A stretch of 64,000 nt of DNA. Origin: Torpedo marmorata (Eukaryota). The stretch lies in the NCBI GenBank assembly GCA_977017645.1, contig OZ360220.1:204600001-204664000 (forward strand), given 5' to 3'. The position numbers were made by a program, and so were the translations under genes. The notes under the pieces are model-generated. The model saw nothing but the letters and a program-made list of their open reading frames with translations, was not told where the DNA came from and ran no database searches. Below, piece by piece: positions 12,537-47,209 of the stretch; the stretch's first letter is position 1; each line of letters opens with the position of its first letter.

Positions 12537-13053
12537 CAGGTATGCGCCGCTTAACGTCTACAATACGTTCTGTGAAATTGGGCGTTATATACTTAGCAAA
12601 GCTATATGGGATACTGTAGTGTACCTGTAAACTTTTTATTTGTAAGTAGGGATCAGTGTAGGGACCGACACGGGACTGTGGGGAGAGAGCGGGGCAGTGG
12701 GATCAGTGTGGGGACCAACACGGGGCTGTGGGGAGAGAGCGGGGCAGTGGGATCAGTGTGGGGACCGACACGGGGCTGTCGGGAGAGAGCGGGGCAGTGG
12801 GATCAGTGTGGGGACTGATACAGGGCTGTGGGGAGAGCGCGGGGCAGTGGGATTAGTTGGGACTGATACAGGGCAGTGGGGAGAGAGCGGGGCAGTCGGA
12901 TCAGTTTGGGTATACAGTATACAATTTCCTATAGCTAGCGATCGCTTTTTGTAAATTGCTGCAGACTTGCTCGCAGTAACTGAATAATTATGGGACCACG
13001 GACGTATATGCGGTCGGACGCTGCCCGAACGGATGTTAAGTAGTGCATACCTG
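12537..13053. mobile_element. Tigger (Golem/MER7-like) MITE with internal minisatellite
   Basis: TA|CAGGTATGCGCCGCTTAACGTC ... GATGTTAAGTAGTGCATACCTG|TA: about 22-bp imperfect TIRs and TA TSD; subterminal ttatgggaccac..gtatatgcggtc resembles Tigger3/MER7 as recalled. Confidence 0.85.
12649..12910 (+). repeat. GC-rich minisatellite, about 5 x 50 bp
   Basis: Unit ggggcagtgggatcagtgtggggaccgacacggggctgtggggagagagc. Confidence 0.9.
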
Positions 13054-15080: not shown

Positions 15081-15245
15081 TGTTGCGGATACACGCAGTC
15101 TTGGTACGCCGCGTATGACGTCATGACGTCATCACGCACTATATAAAGCGTGGCGCGGGAAACCATTGTTCGATTTGTAATAAAGGATGAATGAAGCACC
15201 ATGTCTCCGTGTGCTTGTGTATATGTAAACCTAGAATACACTACA
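15081..15245 (+). repeat. Gypsy 5' LTR (165 bp, TG...CA)
   Basis: TGTTGCGGATAC...CACTACA; contains tandem TGACGTCA (15116-15131), TATATAAA (15140) and AATAAA. Confidence 0.93.
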
Positions 15246-15387
15246 GATTGGCGACGAGGATCAAAATGAACTTCCCTAACAAGGAAAGGGAGGAGAAGAA
15301 AAGAAGAACGAAAACCTACCACATCAGTGAGCTCCACAGGCTCACTCACAAAGAAGAAAGAAGGGAAAACGCGGGAAAAGACACAAA

Positions 15388-17778
15388 ATGGCGGACAGCC
15401 GTTTCAGAGTACAAAGACTCAGAAGACTGGTATGACTACATTGAAAGATTCAATATGTACTGTATTGCCCACAATGTGACTGATACACCAGTAACCAAGA
15501 GGAAACAAGCTCTGTTTCTAAGTGAAGTGGGAAGCAAAACTTTTAAACTTATGAAGTCCCTTTTGGCACCTGAAAGACCAAGTGCTAAGACTTATGATGA
15601 ACTATGCACGGTAATAGGAGAACACCTATTTCCCAGAACCAGTAATTATTGTAGAACGTTATAAGTTTTATTCCAGAAAGCAAATGACAGGCGAGCCAAT
15701 AAGCGAATATTTAGCTGAATTACGCAGGCTATCAGAACGTTGTGAGTTCGGAGAATTCTTAAATGATGCATTAAGAGACCGATTGGTCATGGGTTTGGCT
15801 GACCGCAACACCCAACAACGATTACTAAGTAAACCTGATTTAGATATTAAGTCTGCTTATGCTACAGTGGTGAGTTTCGAAATGGCCAGCCAAATTATTG
15901 ATATTATACAAGGAGAACCCTCGACCGTAGGGTTTGTTACAAAACCAAACCGACAAGAATGTTTCCGCTGCGGGAAAAGCAACCACAGCCCTGACAACTG
16001 TTATTTTAAAAAGGCCAAATGCCATTATTGCGACAAAGAAGGACATATTAAATCCAGATGTCCAAGCAGAAAATTACTATACCAAAAGAGTAATAAACAA
16101 AAGCCAAAATAGAGCAGATAACCTTCCAAAGTAAAACAAATTAGAGAGAAAGACAAAACCCCTAGCAGTGAGTCTACTAATGACTTGGAAGAGGAAAAAG
16201 CGGTGGATATAACACAGGCAGTGGATGTAATGCATGTTCGCAGTGTGGGGGACAAGAAGTCTGAAATTTACGTAGATGTTAAGATCAATGGCAAACCTAT
16301 TCGAATGGAATTAGACACCGGAGCATCGGTAACTCTAATGCCAAAAAACATTATTCGAATTGTTGTCCAACCTTACCATAAAACAATCCGACATACTATT
16401 AAGAACAGTCACAGGGGAAAAAGTCAAAGTGATTGGTAAATGCAAAGTTAAGGTCGAATATAAGAGTAAGATCTCAAAAGACTTACCCATCGTCATTATT
16501 GACGCAAAGAGAAACGCCTTGTTCGGAAGGAACTGGTTATCACACATCCAATTGGATTGGATGGAAATCGGGTCAGTACTGAAGATTCAGACGGAAAATG
16601 AACCAAAACTGACACAAGTGCTGAAGAAGTATCAAACTTTATTTGGGAAAAGCCTGGGGAGAATCAAAGGAGCCGAAGCAAAATTACAATTGAAACCTGA
16701 AGCTGAACCAAAGTTCTATAAACCAAGGACAGTGCCTTTTGCAATAAAAGGAAAAATTGAGGCGGAACTCAACAGATTAGAAAATGAGGGAATCATTGAA
16801 AAGCTTCAATATAGTGACTGGGCAGCTCCCATTGTGCCAGTCCGAAAACCGAATGGAGAAATCCGAATTTGCGGAGATTATAAAGTCACTGTTAATCAAG
16901 CTCTGCAAGTACCGGAACATCCCATGCCAAGAGCGTAGGAATTATTCCAATCCCTAAATGGCGGGAAAAAGTTCACTAAGCTGGATTTATCTCAAGCGTA
17001 TCAACAAGTTAAATTGGATGAAACATCAAAGAAATATGTGGCAATCAATACCCATCGGGGATTATTCACATATACGAGAATGCCATACGGAATATCAGCA
17101 GCTCCTGCAATATTTTAAGCAATCATGGACAAATTACTGCACGGGATAAATGTAGGGTGCTACCTGGATGATATTATCACAGGGTGGGACGATGCAGAGC
17201 ACTTATCAAACTTAGAAAAAGTCTTAAACCGACCATAACAAGCGGATGTCCACCTGCGCAAAGACAAATGTGTATTTATGGTACCCTCCGTAACGTATTT
17301 GGGATTTACAATTAACAGTGAAGGCGTACAAATGAATACGGCAGGTACCGAAGCCATCCACAGAGCACCCTGCCCAACAAACAGAGCAGAACTACAATCG
17401 TTCTTAGGTTTAGTCAACCATTATCGGAAACACATCCCAGACATGTCCACCCTGTGCAACCCACTGAACCAGTTACGAAGAAATGACCAAAAATGGTGCT
17501 GGATTACCAAAACAAATGACGCCTTTAACCGGTTAAAGAAACTATTAACCTCAAGCAATAATGTACTCGTCCACTACGATCCGAACAAAGAGGTGACCCT
17601 AGCGGTGGATGCCTCACCAGTGGGTTTAGGAGCAGTATTGTCACAAATCACCGAAAAGGGAGAACAACCAGTGGCTTATGCATCTCGGTCCTTGACAGCT
17701 TGTGAACGCAATTATGCACAATTGGAAAAAGAAGGACTGGCCATAATATTCGGAATCAAAAGATTTCACCAGTACTTG
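15388..17778 (+). pseudogene. Gypsy gag-pol 5' part (gag with two CCHC knuckles, protease, RT, RNase H N-part)
   Basis: CFRCGKSNHSPDNC and CHYCDKEGHIKSRC; LDTGA at 16311; YLDD at 17161; DAS..GLGAVL; frameshifts and stops at 16936, 17116, 17236. Confidence 0.92.
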
Positions 17779-18470
17779 TATAAGTAACGGTGACTTCGCT
17801 CCACCAATAGTCACCTGGAGGCTAAGTGTGGTCCTTGCCTTTGACGCGTTTTATTTAATTTACTGACAAAGTCCAATATGTTCAAAAACCTTTATTTTCA
17901 CACATGACTTGCAGTAATCTTCAATGACTTTGATATAAACAGTTCTTGTAAACGATGTATGATAAGTTCCTTTAAATTATTCCTTAAACAATTCCAAAAC
18001 GATATGAAACACTGTAGATGATGTTAAAGTTATAGAAACATTATAAAACGGTATAAAACGGTCAATAAAGATGTGGAGACCAGACTCACCCCCCATACAT
18101 CTCTATCCTTTCTTTGTTCTCTCTCTCTAATGGTTCTGCGCATGCTCCAACGCGCATACTACAATTCCCAGCCTCCCACGCGCACTATGACGTCACTCTA
18201 TACTGCGCATGCGCCCGTCGGCACTCCCGCGCATGCGCATATCAAAGAATGGGCCGACGACGGCCCACAGAACAACGCAAGCGCTCCAAGGCCCGACATG
18301 GCCTCGGAGCGCGCTGAAGACGGCCCAGTGAACAACGCGAGCGCTCAATGGCCCGACGTGGCCCAGGAGCGCTCCGAGGACGGCCCACCGAACCACGCGA
18401 GCGCTCCAAGGCCCGACGAGACATCGGAGCGCCGCAACAACGGTAAGTTAACGAGCCTACGGCTCTTACA
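17779..18470 (-). repeat. BEL element 3' LTR (692 bp)
   Basis: Direct repeat of 23258-23949 with no differences seen by eye; minus strand TGTAAG...CTTATA; three about 60-bp CpG-rich tandem units at 18259-18443. Confidence 0.95.
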
Positions 18471-18670
18471 CCGGCCCCTAATTATTATAATTAGACGTAA
18501 TGTCTTGAATAATAATTACACTATAAATAATAATAACCATAACATTCAAAACAATACAAATCTTCTTTCTTCCTTCTTCATAAATCTAGAGTTTACCATA
18601 ACTCTGATTCAACAAAAGTCTGTAACCTGTGAAATGTACAACAACAAATAAAGTCAGTTTACATTTATCA

Positions 18671-18850
18671 AAGTTCCTCTGTCTCCAACAAAAGACAGAC
18701 CTGGTTAATAGGTCTGTTTAGAAAACCAGTCTTAGCTTTAATTCGCACTTGACGCACAAGTCCTCTTTGTCTTGAAAAGTCTCAATAATCTTTTCCAAGT
18801 AACCAGGAATTTCTTGAAGTTGAACCATCCATAACAATCACAATGTCTCT
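18671..18850 (-). pseudogene. Frameshifted remnant of the BEL/Pao pol C-terminus (DUF5641-like, post-integrase)
   Basis: Manual translation DIVIVMDGSTSRNSWLLGK/IIETFQDK/GLVRQVRIKAKTGFLNRPINQVCLLLE with two frameshifts, outside the long ORF. Confidence 0.8.
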
Positions 18851-18887
18851 TTAAAGTTCTTCCATCTTCACAATCCGAGTCAAAACG

Positions 18888-21800
18888 TTAACCAGTAAAC
18901 CTCAAATCCTCCTCAGATAAAATAGATACAGTTTTTCTTTTGAATTTAACACAAGGCACTTCTTCAGCACGTCGTTTCACTTTATTCCTTTCTTCAGTAT
19001 TCCACTTTTCATGTGAAGAATTTAAACTCTTAGAATTAGAATTTGAATATTTATCTGATTCTTTCGATTTTAAACAGGTCTGTTTAACCACTCTGGTTTC
19101 TATGGCTCTTTCCTGCAATTCTAAATCCAATTTTGCAACTTTCAATTCAGTCTCAGCTCCTTCCAAGAAATTAATAATTTGATCTGAAGTCAAAATATCA
19201 TATGGTACATTGATATTTCCATTGTCAATCCTGTCGCGACAAACTTGAAATTTTTTAATTTCTTCATCTTGTTTGTTACATATCTGCAATGCAATATCAC
19301 ATTCTTTCTGCATTGTTAATTGTTGAACATTCAATTTACATTCTTGATTGGTTTTTAAAGTCAACTGTTTTGAGTTATTAACCAATAACTTGTTTTCTTT
19401 TAAAACATTAATCTCTTCCTCCAACCTTTTACATTTTGATAATGCTGAATCTCTTTCCTCAATAACTGTATTCATTTCTTCAGCAGTTATTCTTTTCTTC
19501 CGCTTTCTGACTTTGCGAGTTTTACTTACAATTAAATCTTTCTGTTTACTGTTTTCTTGCTTATTTAATATTTCCAATTCTCCTTTCAACATTTTGTTCT
19601 CTGAATCATTATTCTTTATTTCATCAGCACAATTTTCTGTGTTCTCCATTTTTACATCACATTGCAATAATTCTTCATTAGCTTTGTCAATTGTAATCTC
19701 TGAACTACAAAATCTACATTCAGATTTGTTTTCAGTCACTTGTTTTATTCCTGTATTTGATTCAATTACACATGAATGATCAACAGTATTATTTGCAACA
19801 TCTTCTAATACTTCACTTTCATCCATTTCTGACGAAATTAATTTCTTCAATGTTGTTTTAAATACCACTGATTTATTTTCACATTGATCTGTTTTCTTTT
19901 CTTCATAAGTGATTTTCTTATTCACGGTTTTTTGCTCTTCTCTTAACTCTTCAAATTTCTCAACCGAAATTTTATTAACATTTATCGCTACCTGTTCCCG
20001 AGCAATATCATTATTTCTTTCCATTGGTCCATTGATTGCCCAACCAAGTATGGTTCTAATAGCGTAAGGTCCATTCCTTTTACTTTCTATTACTTCTTTT
20101 GGTACCAAAACTTTTGGCACATCTGAACCAATCAGCATTTCTATCTCAGAATTAATTTCAGGTAAATAAACCTTCCACAGATAAGCTAAATGATGGATAT
20201 CACTTTGATGAGGAATATTTCCTTCGTTCACAGGCATAGTCTTCTGAGTATATACACTTGGAAGATCACAAAATTTTTTGTCATCCAATCCAGCAACCTC
20301 TAAGCCTGAAACAATGTTAGTTTCAACAACCTTTTCTTGTCCCATTGTTTTTAACATAATTCTTGATTTTCTTCCTTGAATATTAAGTTTATTCATTAGT
20401 CCTTCCGTGCAAAAAGATGCAGTGCTACCTGGGTCTAGAAATGCATATGTTTTTACTATTGCATCCCCTTTCTTGGCCTTAACTTGTACAGGCACTATTG
20501 AAAGTTTGCAGTTATTCACCCCGGCCCCAGTAAGACCACTTGTCTGAACCGAGGTTATAACATTATTTTCTTTTGTTTCCTTTGTTTCTGTTTGCTCCTT
20601 TTCCAATTCCTTGTTTCTGTTACGGACATGCAAAATTCTAGGATGTTTAAAATTGCATATGTCACAATTAATTTGCTTCTCGCAGTTTTTACTGATGTGC
20701 CCTTTACACAGACAGCTAAAACATATTCCATTTTCCTTTAAGAAAGCGATCCTTTCTTTATGTTCCTTCCTTTCCAATTGTAAACACATTTCCAAAGCAT
20801 GTCCACCTTTACAGAACAAACAACTCTTTTCATTAGGCAAACTTTCCTTTTCCTTATTTATTTTGTCCTTTTCTTTACTTATAACTTGCACATTAGTAGC
20901 AAAAGTACTCCTTTTCACCTTCGGACTAGACTGTGAATTAGACTTCCTTACATCTTTACCCATTGAATTATCTCTGGCATTTCCATATAGTGGATCTGTT
21001 TCAACATACACTCGTCGTTCAAGAAAATTTACCAAATCCTTTAAGGTAGTTTTTCGACCGTAATCTACTTGTAAATTACAAGCCAAATCTCTCCATCTAT
21101 CCCATAACTTGTAAGGTAATTTTTCTAAAATGATTCGCATATTACTATGCACATCAAGCTCACGAATACCATCGATTTCTTCCATAGCATTACAACATCC
21201 TCTTAAAAACAAAGTATATTCTTGCAAAGCCTTTACATCATTTTGTTTTATTGATGTCCATTTAAGAGCTTTATCCATATAAGCTAAAGCAATTCGATGT
21301 TTGTTGCCAAAATATTGTTCCAATAAATCCTTAGCTTTATCTAATCCTCTTCCTGAAGACATTTGATTACAACTTTTAACCAGTTCCTTTGGATGTCCCT
21401 TTGTGAACATTTCCAAATAATAAAGACATTCATCTCGATCTTGGCATTTATCTTCAATATTGCGTTTGAAAGATCTCATAAACGATTGATATTGAAGTGG
21501 ATCACCATCAAAAATTTGTATCTCTTTCTTGGGTAAAGAAGAGAGAGACTGTAACTGAAACAATGATGCAGCAATTTCATTTTGTCTTTCCTTGGATGAC
21601 AATACATTGCTCTGTTCACCGTCTCTTGTTGTATGCAATGTATCTGGAAACCTTACTGGTGTAGTTTCTTCCATATTTCTGATGCTTGGCTCATATAACA
21701 AAGAAGCTGCTTCGTTCGACCGTACCCAATCCGCAGCTTTGCTTTCAGATGTTATTATTGGTACATGTGACTCGATACCAATATGCTCTTGAAAGGTTTG

Positions 21801-22850
21801 TCTTTGTATATGTAAGTTTTGTATCCTTGGTTCTAAAATATCTATCCTTTTGGTTGGTTTCTTTTCCTGTGACTCTTTTTTTAAATATGACCTTTTATCA
21901 TCAGACAATTTAGATGATTTACTGCTAACACCAGATACCATTGAACCTTCTATTGCTTTCTTTTCTGCCTTGGCAATAGCAATGTTTGCTTCCAGCTCCT
22001 GCAGTTCTTTTCTCTGTCTTAGCTGCTCCTTCTCTTGTCTTAGCTGCTCCTTTAGCTGCTCCTCCTTTTGTCTTAGCTGCTCCTTATTTTGTCTTAGCTG
22101 CTCCTCCTCTTGTCTTAGCCGCTCCTTTAGCTGTTTCTCATTTTTTCTTAGCTGCTCCTCCTCTTGTCTTAGCTGCTCCTTTAGCTGCTTCTCATTTTGT
22201 CTTAGCTGCTCCTCCTCTTGTCTTAGCTGCTCCTTTAGCTGCTTCTCATTTTGTCTTAGCTGCTCCTCCTCTTGTTCTAATATAAATTTATCCTTAAGCG
22301 TTTTTTGTTGTGCAAGAAGAGCGGCCAATTTAACATCAACCTTTGTACGTGACGATGCAGAACTTGAAGTACGAGAAACTCTGGAGCTTGAACCAGAACT
22401 TCTTTTGCTTCTCCTGCTTTCAGCATTTGAGACACTGTCACTTGCTTGTATTTCGTCCTGCAGTTCATATGTTGTCTTCATACTTACCTCTTTATCCAAT
22501 TCGAATTGTATATCCTTTACATCTTCAACCAATTCAATTTCTTCCTCATTTGGTGACACAATTTCAGCCATTTCCAAGTTATCTTCTTGTTCAAATAATG
22601 AAGCTGCCTCTTCATCCTTTGCCAGCTTCAATCTTTCAATAAGAGCCCTTTTATTTCCACTTATGTCCTTTTTCAGTCGCTTCAATTCTTCTTTAATATC
22701 CACAACCTTCATGTCTTCAATACGTTGGTCCTCAACAGCAACATCAGCGGTTGCTGCGTCAGCTGCTGATAAATCAGTAGCTGCTGTGTCAGTGGCTGCT
22801 GCGGCCATTTTACTCGTCTTGTTCCTCTTTCCTTCAAGCATACACAACAC
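18888..22850 (-). CDS. BEL/Pao Gag-protease polyprotein with N-terminal SAP domain and C-terminal MIPOL1-like coiled coil (1320-codon ORF; likely ATG at 22808)
   Basis: SAP-like IEDMKVVDIKEELKRLKKDISGNKRALIERLK; DUF1759-type LPKKEIQIFDGDPLQYQSF; CLFCKGGH..C, CFSCLCKGH..C, CDICNFKH..LH; protease YAFLDPGSTASF..IGSD..LGWAING; no YxDD; uninterrupted frame. Confidence 0.9.
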   Translation of the reverse strand: MLCMLEGKRNKTSKMAAAATDTAATDLSAADAATADVAVEDQRIEDMKVVDIKEELKRLKKDISGNKRALIERLKLAKDEEAASLFEQEDNLEMAEIVSPNEEEIELVEDVKDIQFELDKEVSMKTTYELQDEIQASDSVSNAESRRSKRSSGSSSRVSRTSSSASSRTKVDVKLAALLAQQKTLKDKFILEQEEEQLRQNEKQLKEQLRQEEEQLRQNEKQLKEQLRQEEEQLRKNEKQLKERLRQEEEQLRQNKEQLRQKEEQLKEQLRQEKEQLRQRKELQELEANIAIAKAEKKAIEGSMVSGVSSKSSKLSDDKRSYLKKESQEKKPTKRIDILEPRIQNLHIQRQTFQEHIGIESHVPIITSESKAADWVRSNEAASLLYEPSIRNMEETTPVRFPDTLHTTRDGEQSNVLSSKERQNEIAASLFQLQSLSSLPKKEIQIFDGDPLQYQSFMRSFKRNIEDKCQDRDECLYYLEMFTKGHPKELVKSCNQMSSGRGLDKAKDLLEQYFGNKHRIALAYMDKALKWTSIKQNDVKALQEYTLFLRGCCNAMEEIDGIRELDVHSNMRIILEKLPYKLWDRWRDLACNLQVDYGRKTTLKDLVNFLERRVYVETDPLYGNARDNSMGKDVRKSNSQSSPKVKRSTFATNVQVISKEKDKINKEKESLPNEKSCLFCKGGHALEMCLQLERKEHKERIAFLKENGICFSCLCKGHISKNCEKQINCDICNFKHPRILHVRNRNKELEKEQTETKETKENNVITSVQTSGLTGAGVNNCKLSIVPVQVKAKKGDAIVKTYAFLDPGSTASFCTEGLMNKLNIQGRKSRIMLKTMGQEKVVETNIVSGLEVAGLDDKKFCDLPSVYTQKTMPVNEGNIPHQSDIHHLAYLWKVYLPEINSEIEMLIGSDVPKVLVPKEVIESKRNGPYAIRTILGWAINGPMERNNDIAREQVAINVNKISVEKFEELREEQKTVNKKITYEEKKTDQCENKSVVFKTTLKKLISSEMDESEVLEDVANNTVDHSCVIESNTGIKQVTENKSECRFCSSEITIDKANEELLQCDVKMENTENCADEIKNNDSENKMLKGELEILNKQENSKQKDLIVSKTRKVRKRKKRITAEEMNTVIEERDSALSKCKRLEEEINVLKENKLLVNNSKQLTLKTNQECKLNVQQLTMQKECDIALQICNKQDEEIKKFQVCRDRIDNGNINVPYDILTSDQIINFLEGAETELKVAKLDLELQERAIETRVVKQTCLKSKESDKYSNSNSKSLNSSHEKWNTEERNKVKRRAEEVPCVKFKRKTVSILSEEDLRFTG

Positions 22851-23257
22851 TAGTCAAACAACAGTCCCCAATGGACCAGCGGCAGCAATTCCAATCTGTG
22901 TTCTTACTTGCTAAAGATACACAGAAGGAGTCCACAGACATATGCCTACCACTTCAAATGACTGTAATGTGCTGCAATCCACAAACGAGTTTCAACCACA
23001 ACATCCGTCACTAATATCACTGATTTTCCAAAAATGGTTTCTCCAACGTATTTATAGGACACTTTATTATAAGATTTGAAGCTTTAAATCCCTCTCTGGC
23101 TGTTACTCATGGCAGATGGATGTAGATTACAAACTGCCCCCAACTCGAGGCATCTCCAAAATGGCCACCAATTTATATCAGCCCAAAGCACAGAGAGTTT
23201 TTTTTTCTATCTTCTTTCCTTCAAACTTCTGTTCCAAACAACCAGCACTTTATTGAC

Positions 23258-23949
23258 TATAAGTAACGGTGACTTCGCTCCACCAATAGTCACCTGGAGG
23301 CTAAGTGTGGTCCTTGCCTTTGACGCGTTTTATTTAATTTACTGACAAAGTCCAATATGTTCAAAAACCTTTATTTTCACACATGACTTGCAGTAATCTT
23401 CAATGACTTTGATATAAACAGTTCTTGTAAACGATGTATGATAAGTTCCTTTAAATTATTCCTTAAACAATTCCAAAACGATATGAAACACTGTAGATGA
23501 TGTTAAAGTTATAGAAACATTATAAAACGGTATAAAACGGTCAATAAAGATGTGGAGACCAGACTCACCCCCCATACATCTCTATCCTTTCTTTGTTCTC
23601 TCTCTCTAATGGTTCTGCGCATGCTCCAACGCGCATACTACAATTCCCAGCCTCCCACGCGCACTATGACGTCACTCTATACTGCGCATGCGCCCGTCGG
23701 CACTCCCGCGCATGCGCATATCAAAGAATGGGCCGACGACGGCCCACAGAACAACGCAAGCGCTCCAAGGCCCGACATGGCCTCGGAGCGCGCTGAAGAC
23801 GGCCCAGTGAACAACGCGAGCGCTCAATGGCCCGACGTGGCCCAGGAGCGCTCCGAGGACGGCCCACCGAACCACGCGAGCGCTCCAAGGCCCGACGAGA
23901 CATCGGAGCGCCGCAACAACGGTAAGTTAACGAGCCTACGGCTCTTACA
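23258..23949 (-). repeat. BEL element 5' LTR (692 bp)
   Basis: Identical by eye to 17779-18470; on the minus strand followed by internal sequence GTCAATAAAGTGC. Confidence 0.95.
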
Positions 23950-23954
23950 ACTTG

Positions 23955-25621
23955 TATGGGAGGGGATTCACGTTAGTAACTGACAACAAACCACTAAGTT
24001 TAATTTTAGGGCCTAAAAAGGGCATTCCGGTATTAGCGGCGACAAGAATCCAAAGATGGGCCATAATGCTCACCGCTTATGATTATGAGTTGAAACATAA
24101 ACCAGCAACATTAAAACGGACATGCCGATGCTTTATCACATTTACCCCTACCAGAAACTGAACAAACAGAAGAGATAATCCATTGGACAGCAGAGGCAAC
24201 AGCTGTTAACCAAGAACAGCTTCGCCATCTGCCCATTACAGCCAAAATAATCAGCAAAGAAGTAAGAAACGAACCAACACTGGCCAGTCTTGTATTTTAC
24301 ATTAAATGGATGGCCAGAAGGGGACACTATTTCTCCAGACCTTAAGCCTTACTATACCCGACGTAATGAGATAACTATCGAAGACGGTTGTTTATTGTGG
24401 GGTGCCAGAATGATTATTCCAAGAAAATGGCAAAAAGACATACTTGCAGAGCTACATGACAATCATCCTGGAATGGTCCGAATGAAAGCATTAGCACGAA
24501 TGCATGTTTGGTGGCCATCAATGGACATAGATATCGAACAAACCGTACGAATGTGTGGCACTTGTCAAGAAATGCAACCCAAAGCCCCACAAGCCGAAGC
24601 AAACCCATGGAAATGGCCTTCACGACCATGGCACAGAATTCATGTGGATTTTGCAGGTCCATTCATGGGAGAGAATTTGTTTATTGTTGTCGACACACAC
24701 TCCAAATGGCCAGTGGTATCACACATGCGTACAACGACAACAATTCAAACAATTGAAAGATTACGAACTATGTTTGCATCATATGGATTACCAATGGAAT
24801 TGATCTCAGACAATGGGCCTCAGTTTACATCGGATGCTTTTAGAATGTTCTTGTGTAACAACGGTATACGTCATGTGCTCTCAGCACCGTACCACCCAAG
24901 CACTAATGGAGAAGCTGAGCGTTTTGTGCGAACATTTAAAAACGCCATGAAAGCTGGCAAATCGCTAAACATTTCCTGGAATCACAAAATAGCGAACTTT
25001 CTCGCAGGATACAGAAATACACCTCACTCAACAACTAAAAGAACACCAGCAGAATTGATGTTTGGACGCAGTTTACGAACACGACTCTCTGCTGTACACC
25101 CAGACATCGGCCTTCGTATCGAAAACGCCACTTCGCCAACTAAACCGACCAGATCACTGGAAGTGGGAGAAAGAGTGTTGGTACGAGATTACAGGGATAA
25201 TAAGGAAACTTGGGTAAGTGGCGTTATCATTAAGAAGTTAAGCCCTTGCTCGTATTCCATACAAGTAGGGACTAACATATGGAAACGACACATTGACCAA
25301 CTGAGAGCAGTAGAAGATCCAATAATGACATTACCAACAGATGAGCCCCAAGATTTTCCAGTTTGGGTCAATGACGACCCCCCAGTTATATCTCAAAATG
25401 ATGCTGATCTAGAGAGACGGGAAAGCAGTCCAGCCCAAGGCCTAAATAATGCTCATCGAAAACCAAGCTCCCAATCCGAGGAGGAGGTCAGTCCTGAGAA
25501 AGCAAAGAGTCCAGAAAAAGCAAAAAGTTCAGGGGTTCCGACAGCCTCAGGGGCCCCGCCCCTAAGAAGATCACACCGACAACGACGTCTTCCGGAACAT
25601 CTGAGAGACTATGTACCATGA
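23955..25621 (+). pseudogene. Gypsy pol 3' part (RNase H C-part, H2C2 zinc domain, integrase core)
   Basis: Resumes YGRGFTLVTDNKPL exactly where FHQYL stops; LHDNHPG..CGTC; HVDFAGP, SDNGPQF, SAPYHPSTNGEAERFV; 443-aa integrase ORF 24290-25621. Confidence 0.92.
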
Positions 25622-25791
25622 ACGGGACACTTGACATGTTATGATTATTATTATTACAGTGATATTCTGTAGTTGTAGTTCCTATTGTTACATGATATTT
25701 TGTAGTTGTAGTTCTCACAGTATACCTCAGTAGTTACGGTAGTTTTACATACTTGTTACCTGGGAATGTTTAATCATCTATGTTCTGTGGG

Positions 25792-25943
25792 GGGATACAC
25801 GCAGTCTTGGTACGCCGCGTATGACGTCATGATGCACTATATAAAGCGTGGCGCAGGAAACCATTGTTAGATTAATAATAAAGGATGAATGAAGCACCAC
25901 GTCTCCGTGTGCTTGTGTATATCTAAACCTAGAATACACTACA
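25792..25943 (+). repeat. Gypsy 3' LTR (5' edge eroded)
   Basis: Homologous to 15081-15245 with about 8 substitutions and an 8-bp indel; initial TGTTGC missing next to the G-run PPT; ends CACTACA. Confidence 0.9.
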
Positions 25944-36366: not shown

Positions 36367-37127
36367 CCGTATTTGATAGCATATCAGACCCACTTTTTTT
36401 ATCCCCAAAAAATGGCTCAAAAATATCCCCCAGGTCTTATATGCGAAGTTGAAATTAGGGTGATAATGGTGAGTAATGCCGACAGTGATCATCGTCGCTG
36501 TGTGGCTCACTAGCATCACCGCCATCTATCGTTGGGGGGTGGTGGCGGGCTGTCGGGGGGGAGCGGGGCGGTGGGATCAGTGTGGGGGCTGTCGGTCCCC
36601 ATATTGATTCCACTGCCCCGCTCGCCCCCGACAGCCCGTCACCAGTCCCCACACTGATCCCACCGCCCCGCTCCCCCCCGACAGCCCGCCACTTCACACA
36701 CTGATCCCACCACCCTGCTCCCCCCCCTACAGCCTGCCACCAGTCCCCACACTGATCCCACCGCCCCGCTCCCCCCACACCCAGGAGAGAGCAGGGCAGT
36801 GGGACCAGCGCGGGGACCGACAGCGGGCCGCCGGGAGAGAGCGGGGCCGCGGGACCAGCACAGGGACCAACAGCGGCAGTTTGTTTTTAATAAAATGTTT
36901 TCTGCTATAGCTAAACTGCTTTTGTTTTCTCTTGTAAATTACAGCAGTATTATTAAAAAGATTTTTCCTGTTGTCCTAGTTGCATGTTTTGTCTGTTTTT
37001 TTCTGCTATACTGTAGCTACATATTTCAATAACCCGTAAATACACAAAAAAAATTCTTAATATTCCCAGCTGAAATGGGGAGGGGGGAACTTATATGCAC
37101 GTGGGTCTTATATGCCATCAAATACGG
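36367..37127. mobile_element. Tc2/pogo-like MITE with internal minisatellite units
   Basis: TA|CCGTATTTGATAGCATATCAGACCCAC ... GTGGGTCTTATATGCCATCAAATACGG|TA: 27-bp TIR with 2 mismatches and TA TSD. Confidence 0.88.
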
Positions 37128-42555: not shown

Positions 42556-45500
42556 ATCAGAATCAGAATTTATTGTCATGAACAAGTCATGAATTTCGGT
42601 GTTTTGCGGCAGCATCACAGTGCAATTAACATTCATATTATAACCATCTTACGACATTACTATAAAAAATTATAAATAATAGTGCACGAAAAGTAAGGCA
42701 GTGTCTGGTTCATTGATTATTCAGGAATCTGATGGCAGCAGGGAAGAAGCTGTCCTTATGCCGTTGAGTGCTTGTCTTTAGGCTCCCGTACCTTTTTCCC
42801 GATGGTAGCAGAGTGAAGAGGGCATGGCCTGGGTGGTGGGGGTCTTTGAGGATAGAGGCAGCTTTTTTAAGACACCCCCCTCATGTAGATGTCCTTGATG
42901 GAGTGACGTTTGGTGCTTGTGATGTGACAGGCCGAGTTAACAACCCTCTGGAGTTTACTCTTGTCCTAAGAGTTGGTGCCTCCATACCAGGCAGTGATGC
43001 AACCAGCCAGAATGCTCTCCACGGTACACCTGTAGAAGTTTACGAGAGTCTTCGGTGACATACCGAATCTCCTCAGACACCTCACAAAGTATAGCTTCTG
43101 ACGAGCCTTCTTTGTGATTGCATCAACGTGGAGGCTCCAGGACAGATCCTCGGAGATGTTGACACCCAGGAATTTGAAGTTCTTGACCCTCTCCACTACT
43201 GAGCCCTCGATGAGGACTGGGTCGTGTTCCTCTGACTTCCTCCTGAACTCCACAATCATCTCCTTGGTTTTGCTGACGTTGAGCTCAAGGTTGTTGTCGT
43301 TACACCATTCAACGAGCTGATCTATCTCCCTCCTGTACGCTTCCTCATTGCCGTTTGTGATTCTGCCGACAACTGTGATGTCATCGGCAAACTTGTAGAT
43401 GGCATTGGAATTGTGCCTGGCCACAGTCATGGGTGTATAACGAGTAGAGCAGTGGACTAAGCACGCATCCTTGGGGTGCGCCTGTGTTGATAATCAGTGA
43501 GGAGGAGGCGTTGTTTCCAATTCATACTGACTATGGTCTTCCGATGAGAAGGTCAAGGATCCAGTTGCAGAGTGGGGTACAGAGGCCTAGAGTTTGTAGC
43601 TTCTTGACCAGCACTGAGGGAATAATGGTATTGAAGTCCGAGCTGTAGTCGATGAAGAGCAGCCGTATGTATGAATTGCTGTTTTCGAGGTGATCCAGAG
43701 CTGAGTGGAAAGCCAGCGATATTGCATCTGCTGTGGAGCGATTGTGACGATAGGCGAATTGCAGTGGGTCCAGATCTTTGCTTAGGTTCGTGTTAATTCT
43801 GGCCATGACCAGCCTCTCAAAGCATTTCATCACAGTAGAAGTTAGTGCTACTGGGCGGTAGTCGTTGAGGCAGCCCACACTACTCTTCTTGGGTACTGGG
43901 ATGATTGATGCCCTTTTGAAGCAGGTGGGAACCTCTGACTGCCGCAATGAGAGGTTTAAAATATCCGTGAACACTCTGGCTAGTTGGTTAACGCAGATTT
44001 TCAGTACCCTGCCAGGTACGCCGTCAGGGCCTGATGCCTTGCGAGGGTTCACCCTCTTGAATGATGTTCTGACGTCGCCCTCAGAGACAGATATCACAGA
44101 GTCCTCAGCCTTTTCAGGGATTCTAGTAGGCACTGTTTTGTTCTTCTTCTCAAAGCGGGCATAGAAGGTGTTCAGCTGATCGGGTAGTGAAGCATCACAG
44201 CGGTCTATAGTGTTCGCCCTCGCTTTATAGGCTGTAATGGCCTGCACTCCCTGCCATAGCTGGCATGTATCTGTCTCTGTCTCCCTCCGGAATTGCCACT
44301 TTGCTCCAGAGATGGCCTTCCGCAGGTCGTGCCTGGACTTCTTGTAAAGATCCCGGTCCCTGGCCTTAAACACCCTTGTTCTCACCCTCAGCAGGTTGCA
44401 AATTCTCTGATTCATCCAGGGCTTCTGGTTGGGGAACACCCGGTATTTGCGCATGGGTACACACTCATCCACGCAGGTCTTGATGAAGTCGGTGACACCT
44501 GTTGCATATTCATTCAGGTCTATGGATGAGTGCTTGAATATGTTCCAGTCCACCGATTCAAAGCAGTCCTGCAGACGCTCCTCCGCCCCCCTCAACCATA
44601 CTTTCGCCGTCCTCACCACTGGTGCTGTGGTCTTCAGTCTCTGCTTGTACGCCGGGAGTAGAAGTACAGACAGGTTATCAGACTTGCCGAAGTGCGGTCG
44701 TGGTATGGCTCGGTATGCGTTCTTCACAGTGGTGTAGCAGTGGTCGAGTGTGTTGATTCCCATGGTCTCGCATGTGACGTGTTGGTGGTAGTTTGTCAGT
44801 GACTTCTTCAGATTGACCTGATTGAAGTCTCCCACAATGATCGGGAAGGCATCAGGATGTGCTGTCTCATGGCTGTTTATCACAGTGCTCAGTCCCTCCC
44901 GTGCCAGCCTGACGTTAGCCTGGGGCGGAATGTACACTGCGACCAGGATGATGCCGGTGAACTCCCTCGGCAGATAGAATGGGCGACACTTGATCACCAG
45001 ATGTTCCAAGTCGGGGGAGCAGGACTGGGACATGACTGTCCCGTCTGTGCACCACGAAGAATTGATGATGGCACAAACGCTGCCTCCCCTGGTCAGCGCG
45101 ATGGAGGGTGCAGCCCTTGGGCTGCAGTGCCGTGTCCGGAATGTCCACGTTTAGCCATGTTTCTGTAAAGCACATCATGCAGCACTCCCTGATGACTCTC
45201 TGATGTTGAAGTCTGGCTTGGAGTTCATCAAGTTTGTTCTCCAAGGATTGTACGTTGGCCAGGAGGATGGTAGGGAGCAGAAGCTTCAGGGCACCGCGTC
45301 TCAGCTTGACCTGTAGCCCCCTTCTGCGTTCACGTGGTCGGGTTTTCTTTACCTTGCCCCGGGGTCTGCTGCTGGTAGTTCCCGCGGTGTTTAAATGGTC
45401 CGTGCGCTGTCCCTTTAAATCCTCCGCGATGTGTAAGTGTGCTGAGTGCCTGCTGTCTGAAACTCCCGCGAAGTTTAAATGACCCGTTCTCTGGCTGTTT

Positions 45501-45742
45501 AAAACTCCCGTGGAGTTGTTGTTGTACTTGCGTAAGCTGTTTAAAGTTCCCGCGGCCCGACGGAGACTGCTACTTCTTTCGATTCTAAGGTCTGCCAGCG
45601 ATCTTTGTACATCCACGTTGTCGGGTAAGTTTGATTTTATGTTTCTTATTTTTTGTTTGATTTTTAGAAGTTCTGAACGGGAATATTTGATTATTCCCTT
45701 CAGAGCTGCACGCAAAGAGTCGCCGCTGTAAGGTGCCATCTT
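42556..45742 (-). mobile_element. Near full-length Rex1/Babar-type non-LTR retrotransposon (APE endonuclease + RT), inactivated
   Basis: LANVQSLENKLDEL..CFTETWL, VYIPP, IVGDFN, TLDHCY, HFGKSDN, KASGPDG, QFAYR, GAPQGCVLSPLL, KFADD; starts AAGATGGCAC; tail AATAAA(TTCTGA)n; stops at 43531 and about 43522 plus frameshifts. Confidence 0.9.
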
Positions 45743-47209
45743 AGTACCAGTGGGAGAAAAAGAATGGTCGATGTTTCGCGTCGGAACCCTTCATCGAGAC
45801 TAACCAACTAAGTGAGAATTCACCATCTAAATGAGAATTTACCTTCCTTATTTTCAAGTCATTCAACCCAGACTTTAGCATTTATTAATTCATAAGTTTT
45901 ACTGTCCATTGCCATTAATGAGAAATAACATAGAGAAATAGACCTACAGCTCCTCTGCTGTTTGAAAAGGCTAGCAAGCAGTACAATGAGCAGAGTGGCC
46001 TCTGTACTTAGATCTTATGATTTACTTGAAACGTCAGTAAAATATCCATCTTGACCACCAGAATCAACTGCTATCATGGACTCATTGCTCATTAAGCTTG
46101 TCAAAAGTGCTGCTGTCAGTGCCTTTCACAATTATCATGTGCCTCTCTGACCTTTGTGCAACAAATGTGATGTAGTTGCAGCGATAACAAAAAGGCCCAG
46201 CCTTAAAACAGAAGAAAAACTACTGAAAGCTATTCTTTCTATCCTAAAATGGACCTCAGAGTCACACAACATAGAACAGACCCTTCAGCCCATTGAATCC
46301 CCATCAACGACTCATTTACACTAATCTCATTTAATTTTCCCTGCATTCCCATCTGCATCCCCCAAGTTCTACCACTCTGACAGAGTAGGAGCAATCCACA
46401 GTGGCAATCAACCTACCAACCTGCACATCTTTAAGACATGGGAGGGAACTAAAGCAGCCAGAGGAAACTTATGTGGTCACAGGGAGAAGTGCAAATTCCA
46501 CCTGGACGGCATCAGACATCAGGGTTGAACCCAGATCACTGAGCTGCACCACTGTGTCACTCACTCACTGATCCTCGTGTGGTGCAAATCTAAAAGTGGT
46601 AACTTCTTAAAAAATGTTAACGGCCTACTTTTCTTTCACTTAATGCAGAAATACACCAACATGCTTGCAAATCAAATTCCACTTCCCAATTTTTGTATCG
46701 ACCTCAACACAGAACTGCACTCCAGAAGCTGTGTTCCTTGTTCACATGTTACCACAGCACCCCTTTAGTGTACACAACAGAGTAGCTGTTTCTTTCCCAT
46801 TTTGACTTCATATCATCTACCTATTTTATGCATTTATTGTCTCTTCTACTTCAAGTTTACTATTACAGTTTTTTTTTTTTAAGTACCTGTTTAGCTACAA
46901 AAAGTAAGAATTTTGGTGCATATGTACATTGTACAATGTATTTGACAACAAACTCATGATCATGACCCTATTCTGCAATTTTCGATCTTAAAATGCAAGA
47001 TTACAGGAAAAGAGCATGCACCCAAAAACGTATGTCCCGCAGCAGAAACAAAAATTGCTGACTCCTGCCAAAAGAATGGGTTCTGTACATTGAACACCAA
47101 TTGTATCAGTAGTCTGCCTTACGCTGCAAGGAACTATGATTAAATCAAATACATATCTAGCAGATGAACACATTCGAAAACTTGTTATAGGCAAATGAAT
47201 TATAATCTA

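Follow-up and report, generated by a model that had tools for sequence, protein, structure and literature searches.

We found that the window, a 64,000-nucleotide stretch of Torpedo marmorata contig OZ360220.1, contains a newly inserted, non-autonomous BEL/Pao element that lacks pol and has an LTR-matched autonomous partner. In place of pol it carries a cassette of spliced RNA from three host genes, BRCA1, MIPOL1 and Elongin A, each in its own frame behind Gag-protease. The MIPOL1 piece was most likely copied from a circular RNA, as a preserved back-splice suggests, and the reading frame of the element is kept under selection while the amino acids of its cargo drift neutrally. We consider it probable that the element is helper-dependent, that the back-splice came from a circRNA, and that the captured pieces act as frame-keeping filler.

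The BEL copy lies on the minus strand. Its LTRs (5' LTR, 23258-23949; 3' LTR, 17779-18470) are 692 bp each and 100% identical, and the copy is therefore very young. They begin with TG and end with TA, not CA, and a 5-bp target duplication (17774-17778 on the left, 23950-23954 on the right) flanks the copy, within the 5-6 bp that characterize BEL/Pao. The ORF (18888-22853) has 1321 codons from stop to stop, with the first Met at 22808. Pfam identified a SAP domain at the Gag N-terminus (22626-22721, E 5.9e-6) and a weak aspartyl protease match (E 0.075) in a region (20050-20450) that has a DPG motif near 20438 and is 95-99% identical to the helper elements described below. The DPG motif is also present in the helper, and SAP occurs at the N-terminus of Gag in both forms of this BEL family, the defective one and the helper (L168). 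Between these domains are 21/33-nt repeats coding a coiled Gag stretch (21998-22275) and three Cys-His arrays (20628-20822), which we take to be the BEL-type Gag pattern. The initial annotation had noticed no RT, RNase H or integrase motif after the protease, and Pfam likewise found none of these families in the ORF. An untranslated remnant of the integrase C-terminus and a purine tract occupy 18471-18849 and are 95-100% identical to L168. No full-length relative of the ORF was present among 4,918 candidates in a protein collection, and the exact ORF was also absent. The copy sits antisense within a decayed LTR element on the plus strand (15086-25943) with broken gag and pol ORFs and a 93% identical LTR pair, presumably of the Gypsy type by its motifs.

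A search with DUF5641 listed ORFs of about 2,040 codons, and eight such loci were fetched. In all eight, the match to the window element broke off at 19932-19933 and resumed at 18849, so that a discontinuous LTR element lies on both sides of the cassette, as in LTR-mediated retrocopies. The cassette of 1,082 nt (18850-19931) stands where the helper has 3,190 nt of pol. This rules out an origin of the tail from ordinary BEL pol, one of the outcomes that would have spoken against the initial annotation. The helper L168 has identical LTRs of its own, 98.3% identical to the window LTR, and its ORF of 2047 codons contains Peptidase_A17, RT, integrase and DUF5641. It thus has the single gag-pol ORF of BEL/Pao (protease, RT, RNase H and integrase, with Peptidase_A17 and DUF5641), from which the window copy lacks RT, RNase H and integrase. 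The backbones of L168 and the window copy are 93-100% identical, while the 118 nt beside the cassette (19932-20049) are only 78% identical; in all five helpers compared this strip showed 78-80% identity. Such mosaic identity would be explained if repeated recombination renews the backbone, LTRs and gag included, from autonomous helpers and the cassette travels with its edge as a unit.

The initial annotation had proposed that a MIPOL1-like coiled-coil segment was captured by the element. The peptide it quoted is present at residues 1107-1204 of the ORF. A homolog search with this segment gave 32 matches among 526 candidates (best E 3.7e-12), all with the same two Pfam accessions, and every named match (22/22) was MIPOL1. 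The likeness goes beyond that of generic coiled coils: by BLASTP with compositional adjustment, 45 of 99 residues were identical to MIPOL1 (E 6e-19), and the matching host exons outscored shuffled sequence, as detailed below. Against PDB, the sole match of the ORF tail was vimentin (E 0.02).

The host has a single MIPOL1 locus, on contig C40, whose successive exons we label T, U, V, W, A, B, C and D; among named MIPOL1 sequences, an electric ray's came closest to a host exon (92%). DNA identity between the cargo and the host's own MIPOL1 exons was 79-86%. Exons A, B, C, T and U each outscored 300/300 shuffles and V was borderline, while S, W and D did not outscore all of the 300 shuffles made for each exon. 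In the window, the 3' part of exon A (19434-19539; host C40:64492683-513, 108/121 identical) is followed by exon B (19329-19433; C40:64463599-492, 85/104) and exon C (19234-19328; C40:64385806-712, 69/85). The exon-exon junctions are spanned as in spliced RNA, and the introns of 29 and 78 kb are missing.

MIPOL1 A-B-C is only part of what follows the protease: the initial annotation had not noticed that the rest of the 350-residue tail consists of BRCA1 sequence, more MIPOL1 exons that are out of their genomic order, and Elongin A. The linker that follows the protease matched skate BRCA1 (E 8e-15). Two exons of the single host BRCA1 locus on C61 are joined across an 8.7-kb intron with 73-86% DNA identity: an exon fragment at 19823-19936 (C61:25497366-25497230, 83-86%, with a 24-nt in-frame deletion) and, spliced to it, the start of the large exon at 19532-19822 (C61:25488549 onward, 73%, E 7e-50). 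At G000:C61:25488549, 9 nt present in skate BRCA1 and in the element are missing from the host BRCA1, and the capture is therefore older than the host deletion. The other end of the cassette matched two host Elongin A exons on C41 (78-82%), at 18938-19089 (C41:38994689-846, 78%, E 2e-30) and 18877-18931 (C41:39005551-605, 82%), the latter containing the ORF stop (18888-18890). The name Elongin A rests on the peptide of an older copy, which matched Elongin-A in PDB (E 1.9e-5); of the 150 scored in a PF06881 search, 136 matched. The host has another Elongin A-like gene, a more distant one, at G000:C25:175318134-175337565, and the captured piece came from the C41 copy. Introns are absent at the MIPOL1, BRCA1 and Elongin A junctions alike, as expected of LTR-mediated retrocopies. 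Only 27 nt of the cassette, at its 3' end (18850-18876), have no assigned host origin; they matched nothing in comparisons that included the helper loci and the Elongin A exons. Two earlier assignments were rejected: the CENP-F-like coiled coil suggested by Atlas leads for the last 70 residues was wrong, and a second round of MIPOL1 upstream of exon A was not significant, the stretch being BRCA1.

In the host, exon T is located 206 kb upstream of exon C; in the element it follows exon C directly, with exon U next. The first 74 nt of T occupy 19160-19233 (C40:64591881 onward, 51/74, better than 300/300 shuffles), and part of U occupies 19090-19155 (C40:64591083-017, 89.6% over 67 nt) after an 81-nt in-frame deletion. 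The join falls at 19233/19234. In three of five copies aligned, exon C ended at its last base (95/95) and T started at base 1 with the two bases adjacent; the exactness of the join rests on older copies, as the window copy has the same C-T spacing with the last bases of exon C drifted. A gap-free C|T join scored better than either C|D or S|T in every one of the 20 oldest and 30 old loci and in 19 of the 30 young loci, of which three of the 30 lack the C|T region. The donor of exon C is thus joined exactly to the acceptor of the upstream exon T, which is the arrangement of a back-splice. A random backward jump would hit both donor and acceptor in 27 of 1,119,756 joins (2.4e-5), or in 9 of 78,725 (1.1e-4) if three or more shared nucleotides are required. 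The predicted MIPOL1 circle from T to C is 780 nt long and stop-free. At one locus, L196, the element runs A48-B-C-T-U-V-W28, about 727 of the 780 nt by exon coordinates, and then back to integrase in frame. This near-complete round rests on that one copy, which, besides the host exon, was the only V-bearing sequence among 40 scored of 408 candidates. Two marks of a circRNA-derived retrocopy are therefore present, a non-colinear donor-to-acceptor junction and the lack of any exon from outside the circle, as no exon S or D sequence was found in the 20 oldest loci. These data suggest that the MIPOL1 piece was most likely copied from a circular RNA. The initial annotation was right that BEL had captured spliced MIPOL1 RNA, which replaces pol as an in-frame fusion with Gag-protease, but the template appears to have been back-spliced and not an ordinary mRNA.

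One alternative is that the scrambled MIPOL1 came from a linear template. Two pre-mRNAs might have been trans-spliced or have given rise to repeated exons, or a genomic tandem duplication of T-C, since lost, might have been the source. Sequence alone does not separate such a template from a circle, and the near-full round occurs in a single copy. On the other hand, over 400 kb of the host's MIPOL1 locus each exon is present once and in normal order, none of the 20 oldest loci carries captured S or D sequence, and mouse Mipol1 yields an exonic circRNA (PMC9888537, where the part available does not give the exons). We therefore regard a linear template as unlikely and a circular one as the better explanation.

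The older subfamily was found by searching with a part that is deleted in young copies, and 150 copies were scored. Most of them are 91-98% identical to the host exons. The oldest form has the order BEL, BRCA1, circle, integrase (L196); in the next, Elongin A takes the place of V-W, and later forms lose 24, 120, 81, 198, 111 and 3 nt at defined sites. The older subfamilies record how the cassette was captured and trimmed step by step. MIPOL1 A-B-C survives every trimming. Short shared words, which may be no more than chance would give, occur at several cassette joins. Two sites that resembled original capture points proved to be later deletions: the join between BRCA1 and MIPOL1, where a word of 8 nt is shared, and the T-U gap of 81 nt. 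Young copies are 73-90% identical to the host, and their G+C content has fallen from 38% to 29%. The window cassette (18850-19931) drifts strongly to A/T relative to the host (G>A 53, C>T 42 and C>A 25 of 190 changes).

The reading frame has been well preserved. Upstream of the stop, 13 of 13 major events are in frame, three of them junctions made at capture and the other ten deletions or duplications that came later, and for every internal junction the modal distance across it is divisible by three (E8-anchor rows were left out of this analysis). Of the indels common to three or more of 80 loci, 7/9 were in frame inside the ORF compared to 0/13 after the stop; the two frameshifting ones are 2 nt at about 19650 (3 loci) and 2 nt located 13 codons before the stop (6 loci). 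Rare cassette indels were frameshifting in 20 of 33 cases. Despite 190 differences from the host, the 333 codons of the cargo contain no stop, where a neutral model gives a mean of 10.8 and produced no stop-free run in 20,000.

The amino acids behave differently. Identical residues numbered 213/333 over the whole cargo against a neutral 207.0, 77/128 against 75.0 in BRCA1 and 67/97 against 66.6 in MIPOL1 A-B-C, where the changes were no more conservative than chance; in Elongin A the figure was 43/62 against 38.7, which is borderline (P 0.055). The host-to-window w, which includes some change on the host branch, was 1.28 overall (CI 0.90-1.84), 1.35 for MIPOL1 (CI 0.74-2.66) and 1.25 for BRCA1. 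We also compared 25 young copies chosen by their protease (of 30, three interrupted copies and two tandem-duplicate loci were left out). Their shared variants gave w 0.60 for the cassette (p 0.019) and 0.46 for MIPOL1 (p 0.018, uncorrected among five regions), while private variants gave 1.08; the difference between shared and private variants was not significant (p 0.15). In gag, w was 0.66 (p 0.11), a weak constraint in these samples. A separate dN/dS set was not relied on, as its copies had been picked by cargo identity and some 5' ends were non-homologous. Purifying selection on cargo amino acids, the mark of a domesticated domain, was therefore not found, with the MIPOL1 value of 0.46 as a weak contrary signal. 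Slight protein constraint on the cargo is possible because of this value and the borderline Elongin A result.

It could be speculated, as the initial annotation did, that the cargo works as a protein, its MIPOL1-like coiled coil oligomerising Gag or decoying a host partner. The strongly kept frame, the retention of A-B-C and the w of 0.46 in shared young variants would fit such a role. However, the divergence of MIPOL1 and BRCA1 from the host is what a neutral, stop-free model predicts, in w as in residue counts, and shared and private variants did not differ in a Fisher test (p 0.22). A protein function is thus quite unlikely. Kept frame without kept residues instead fits a need for translation to near the 3' LTR, and the following sequence of events is consistent with the filler reading.

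The intronless cargo, joined to BEL and internally at short shared sequences, would have arisen when BEL RT switched templates onto a co-packaged BRCA1 mRNA and MIPOL1 circle, read the circle for nearly one round and switched back, with Elongin A joining the cassette later. Template switching among co-packaged RNAs has been modelled, in the sections available, by Tan et al. (2016; PMC5131818). Descendants then trimmed the cassette by multiples of three, gaining no stops while the amino acids drifted, and helpers would have supplied new LTRs and gag. Only copies translated nearly to the 3' LTR may have spread, probably because full translation keeps the RNA from being degraded and provides Gag for packaging in cis. 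A literature search found no paper directly on such a need for translation to the 3' LTR or on decay avoidance by it. The element would make its own Gag-protease and borrow RT and integrase from the helper.

The copy number is likely in the tens of thousands. The 750 kb retrieved for the host genes contained five cassettes, four at a single locus; scaled up, this gives approximately 41,000 (Poisson range approximately 13,000-97,000). First-look searches gave 34,301, 40,472 and 37,060 candidates for cargo queries and 7,937 for an RT query; these are not copy numbers. Most of the 150 best young matches lie in open frames of >1,200 codons, a sample in which best matches favour intact copies. Four cassette-bearing copies lie inside MIPOL1's own introns (G000:C40:64340000-64500000). 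At G000:C58:12932662-12955453 and C47:25490833-25501916 the element forms tandem arrays that repeat every 5.4-5.6 kb, and in two copies (L145 and L161) the BRCA1 piece is interrupted by another element of the same family. Another possibility, that pieces of essential genes limit small-RNA silencing, which would also strike BRCA1, MIPOL1 and Elongin A, and so explain the high copy number, is very unlikely: it would suit the near-identity of the oldest copies to host exons, the excess of cargo over RT candidates at first look and a conflict of this kind described for maize captures (PMC13317346, in the part available), but young active copies have diverged and are still drifting, and frame-keeping is left unexplained.

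LTR-mediated gene capture is known; what is unusual is the combination of three genes, a back-splice, selection on the frame only and a very high copy number. In a search of the open literature (Repbase, Dfam and subscription journals lay outside it), we found no paper on this element. LTR-mediated retroposition in animals was described by Tan et al. (2016; PMC5131818), whose cases share with ours spliced host RNA between discontinuous parts of an LTR element, multi-gene chimeras and re-mobilisation as non-autonomous elements, and perhaps also their microsimilarity at switch points; one mosquito case is in BEL18_AG. In the available text those retrocopies are young or decaying and few-copy, and the word "circular" does not appear; supplementary tables may list more BEL or multi-copy cases. 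In contrast, the ray element is long-lived and very high-copy, with a back-splice and frame selection. In mouse, a non-colinear exon junction likewise marks the circular template of the circRFWD2 pseudogenes (Dong et al. 2016; PMC4897178), which have multiple copies (33 high-confidence) with flanks enriched in LTR sequence; the accessible part of that report calls the mechanism unknown and the copies pseudogenes. The ray element, on the other hand, shows the switch points into BEL, has the circle in frame with Gag-protease and two further genes, and likely exists in tens of thousands of copies. Maize Bs1 (PMC13317346) is also an LTR element with three host-gene segments in a chimeric ORF, described as a new chimeric gene with no circular template mentioned in the part available. 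Unlike this plant element, the ray element is an animal BEL with neutral cargo and active, helper-assisted spread. In helper-dependent transducing retroviruses, spliced host sequence fused to gag replaces pol, and the cargo is selected for function. The ray element resembles them in its gag-host fusion, loss of pol and need for a helper; unlike them, it has no env and its cargo drifts neutrally.

These data, in which the switch points are visible and intermediates are preserved, suggest how an LTR element can bring a circRNA into a genome, a route left open in the available part of Dong et al. (2016; PMC4897178). The family, whose copies likely number in the tens of thousands, is also a natural experiment on a non-autonomous element in which selection for an open frame can be told apart from selection acting on the encoded protein. 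In these rays, BRCA1, MIPOL1 and Elongin A fragments in such numbers could lead gene annotation, circRNA calling and small-RNA work astray. More tentatively, a circRNA read almost one round by an LTR RT may have become a permanent translated part of a highly successful mobile element, its BRCA1-circMIPOL1-Elongin A cassette hopping between helper backbones, giving an advantage over the helper and making a germline Gag-host fusion; we hold this broader view as possible, not as the likelier outcome.

The cassette also occurs in contigs of other organisms and is a fossil trace of a back-splice that several species have in common. Contigs of two organisms (B and C) bridge the BRCA1/MIPOL1 join and those of a third (E) cover 30/30 bins; the runs behind such contigs are not recorded as RNA. 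In organism H, from a probable DNA run, 14 contigs have the end of exon C at the T acceptor, together with spliced T-U; contigs of this kind do not distinguish a host circle from element copies. A horizontal origin from the Narcine lineage, considered on the basis of a shared one-codon gap in exon B, was rejected, as 2/20 oldest loci keep the full length. Elsewhere in the window, a 50-nt G+C-rich tandem repeat is present at both 12649-12898 and 36590-36900, partly inverted, and long reading frames of 175, 539 and 291 codons lie on the minus strand at 42966-45790.
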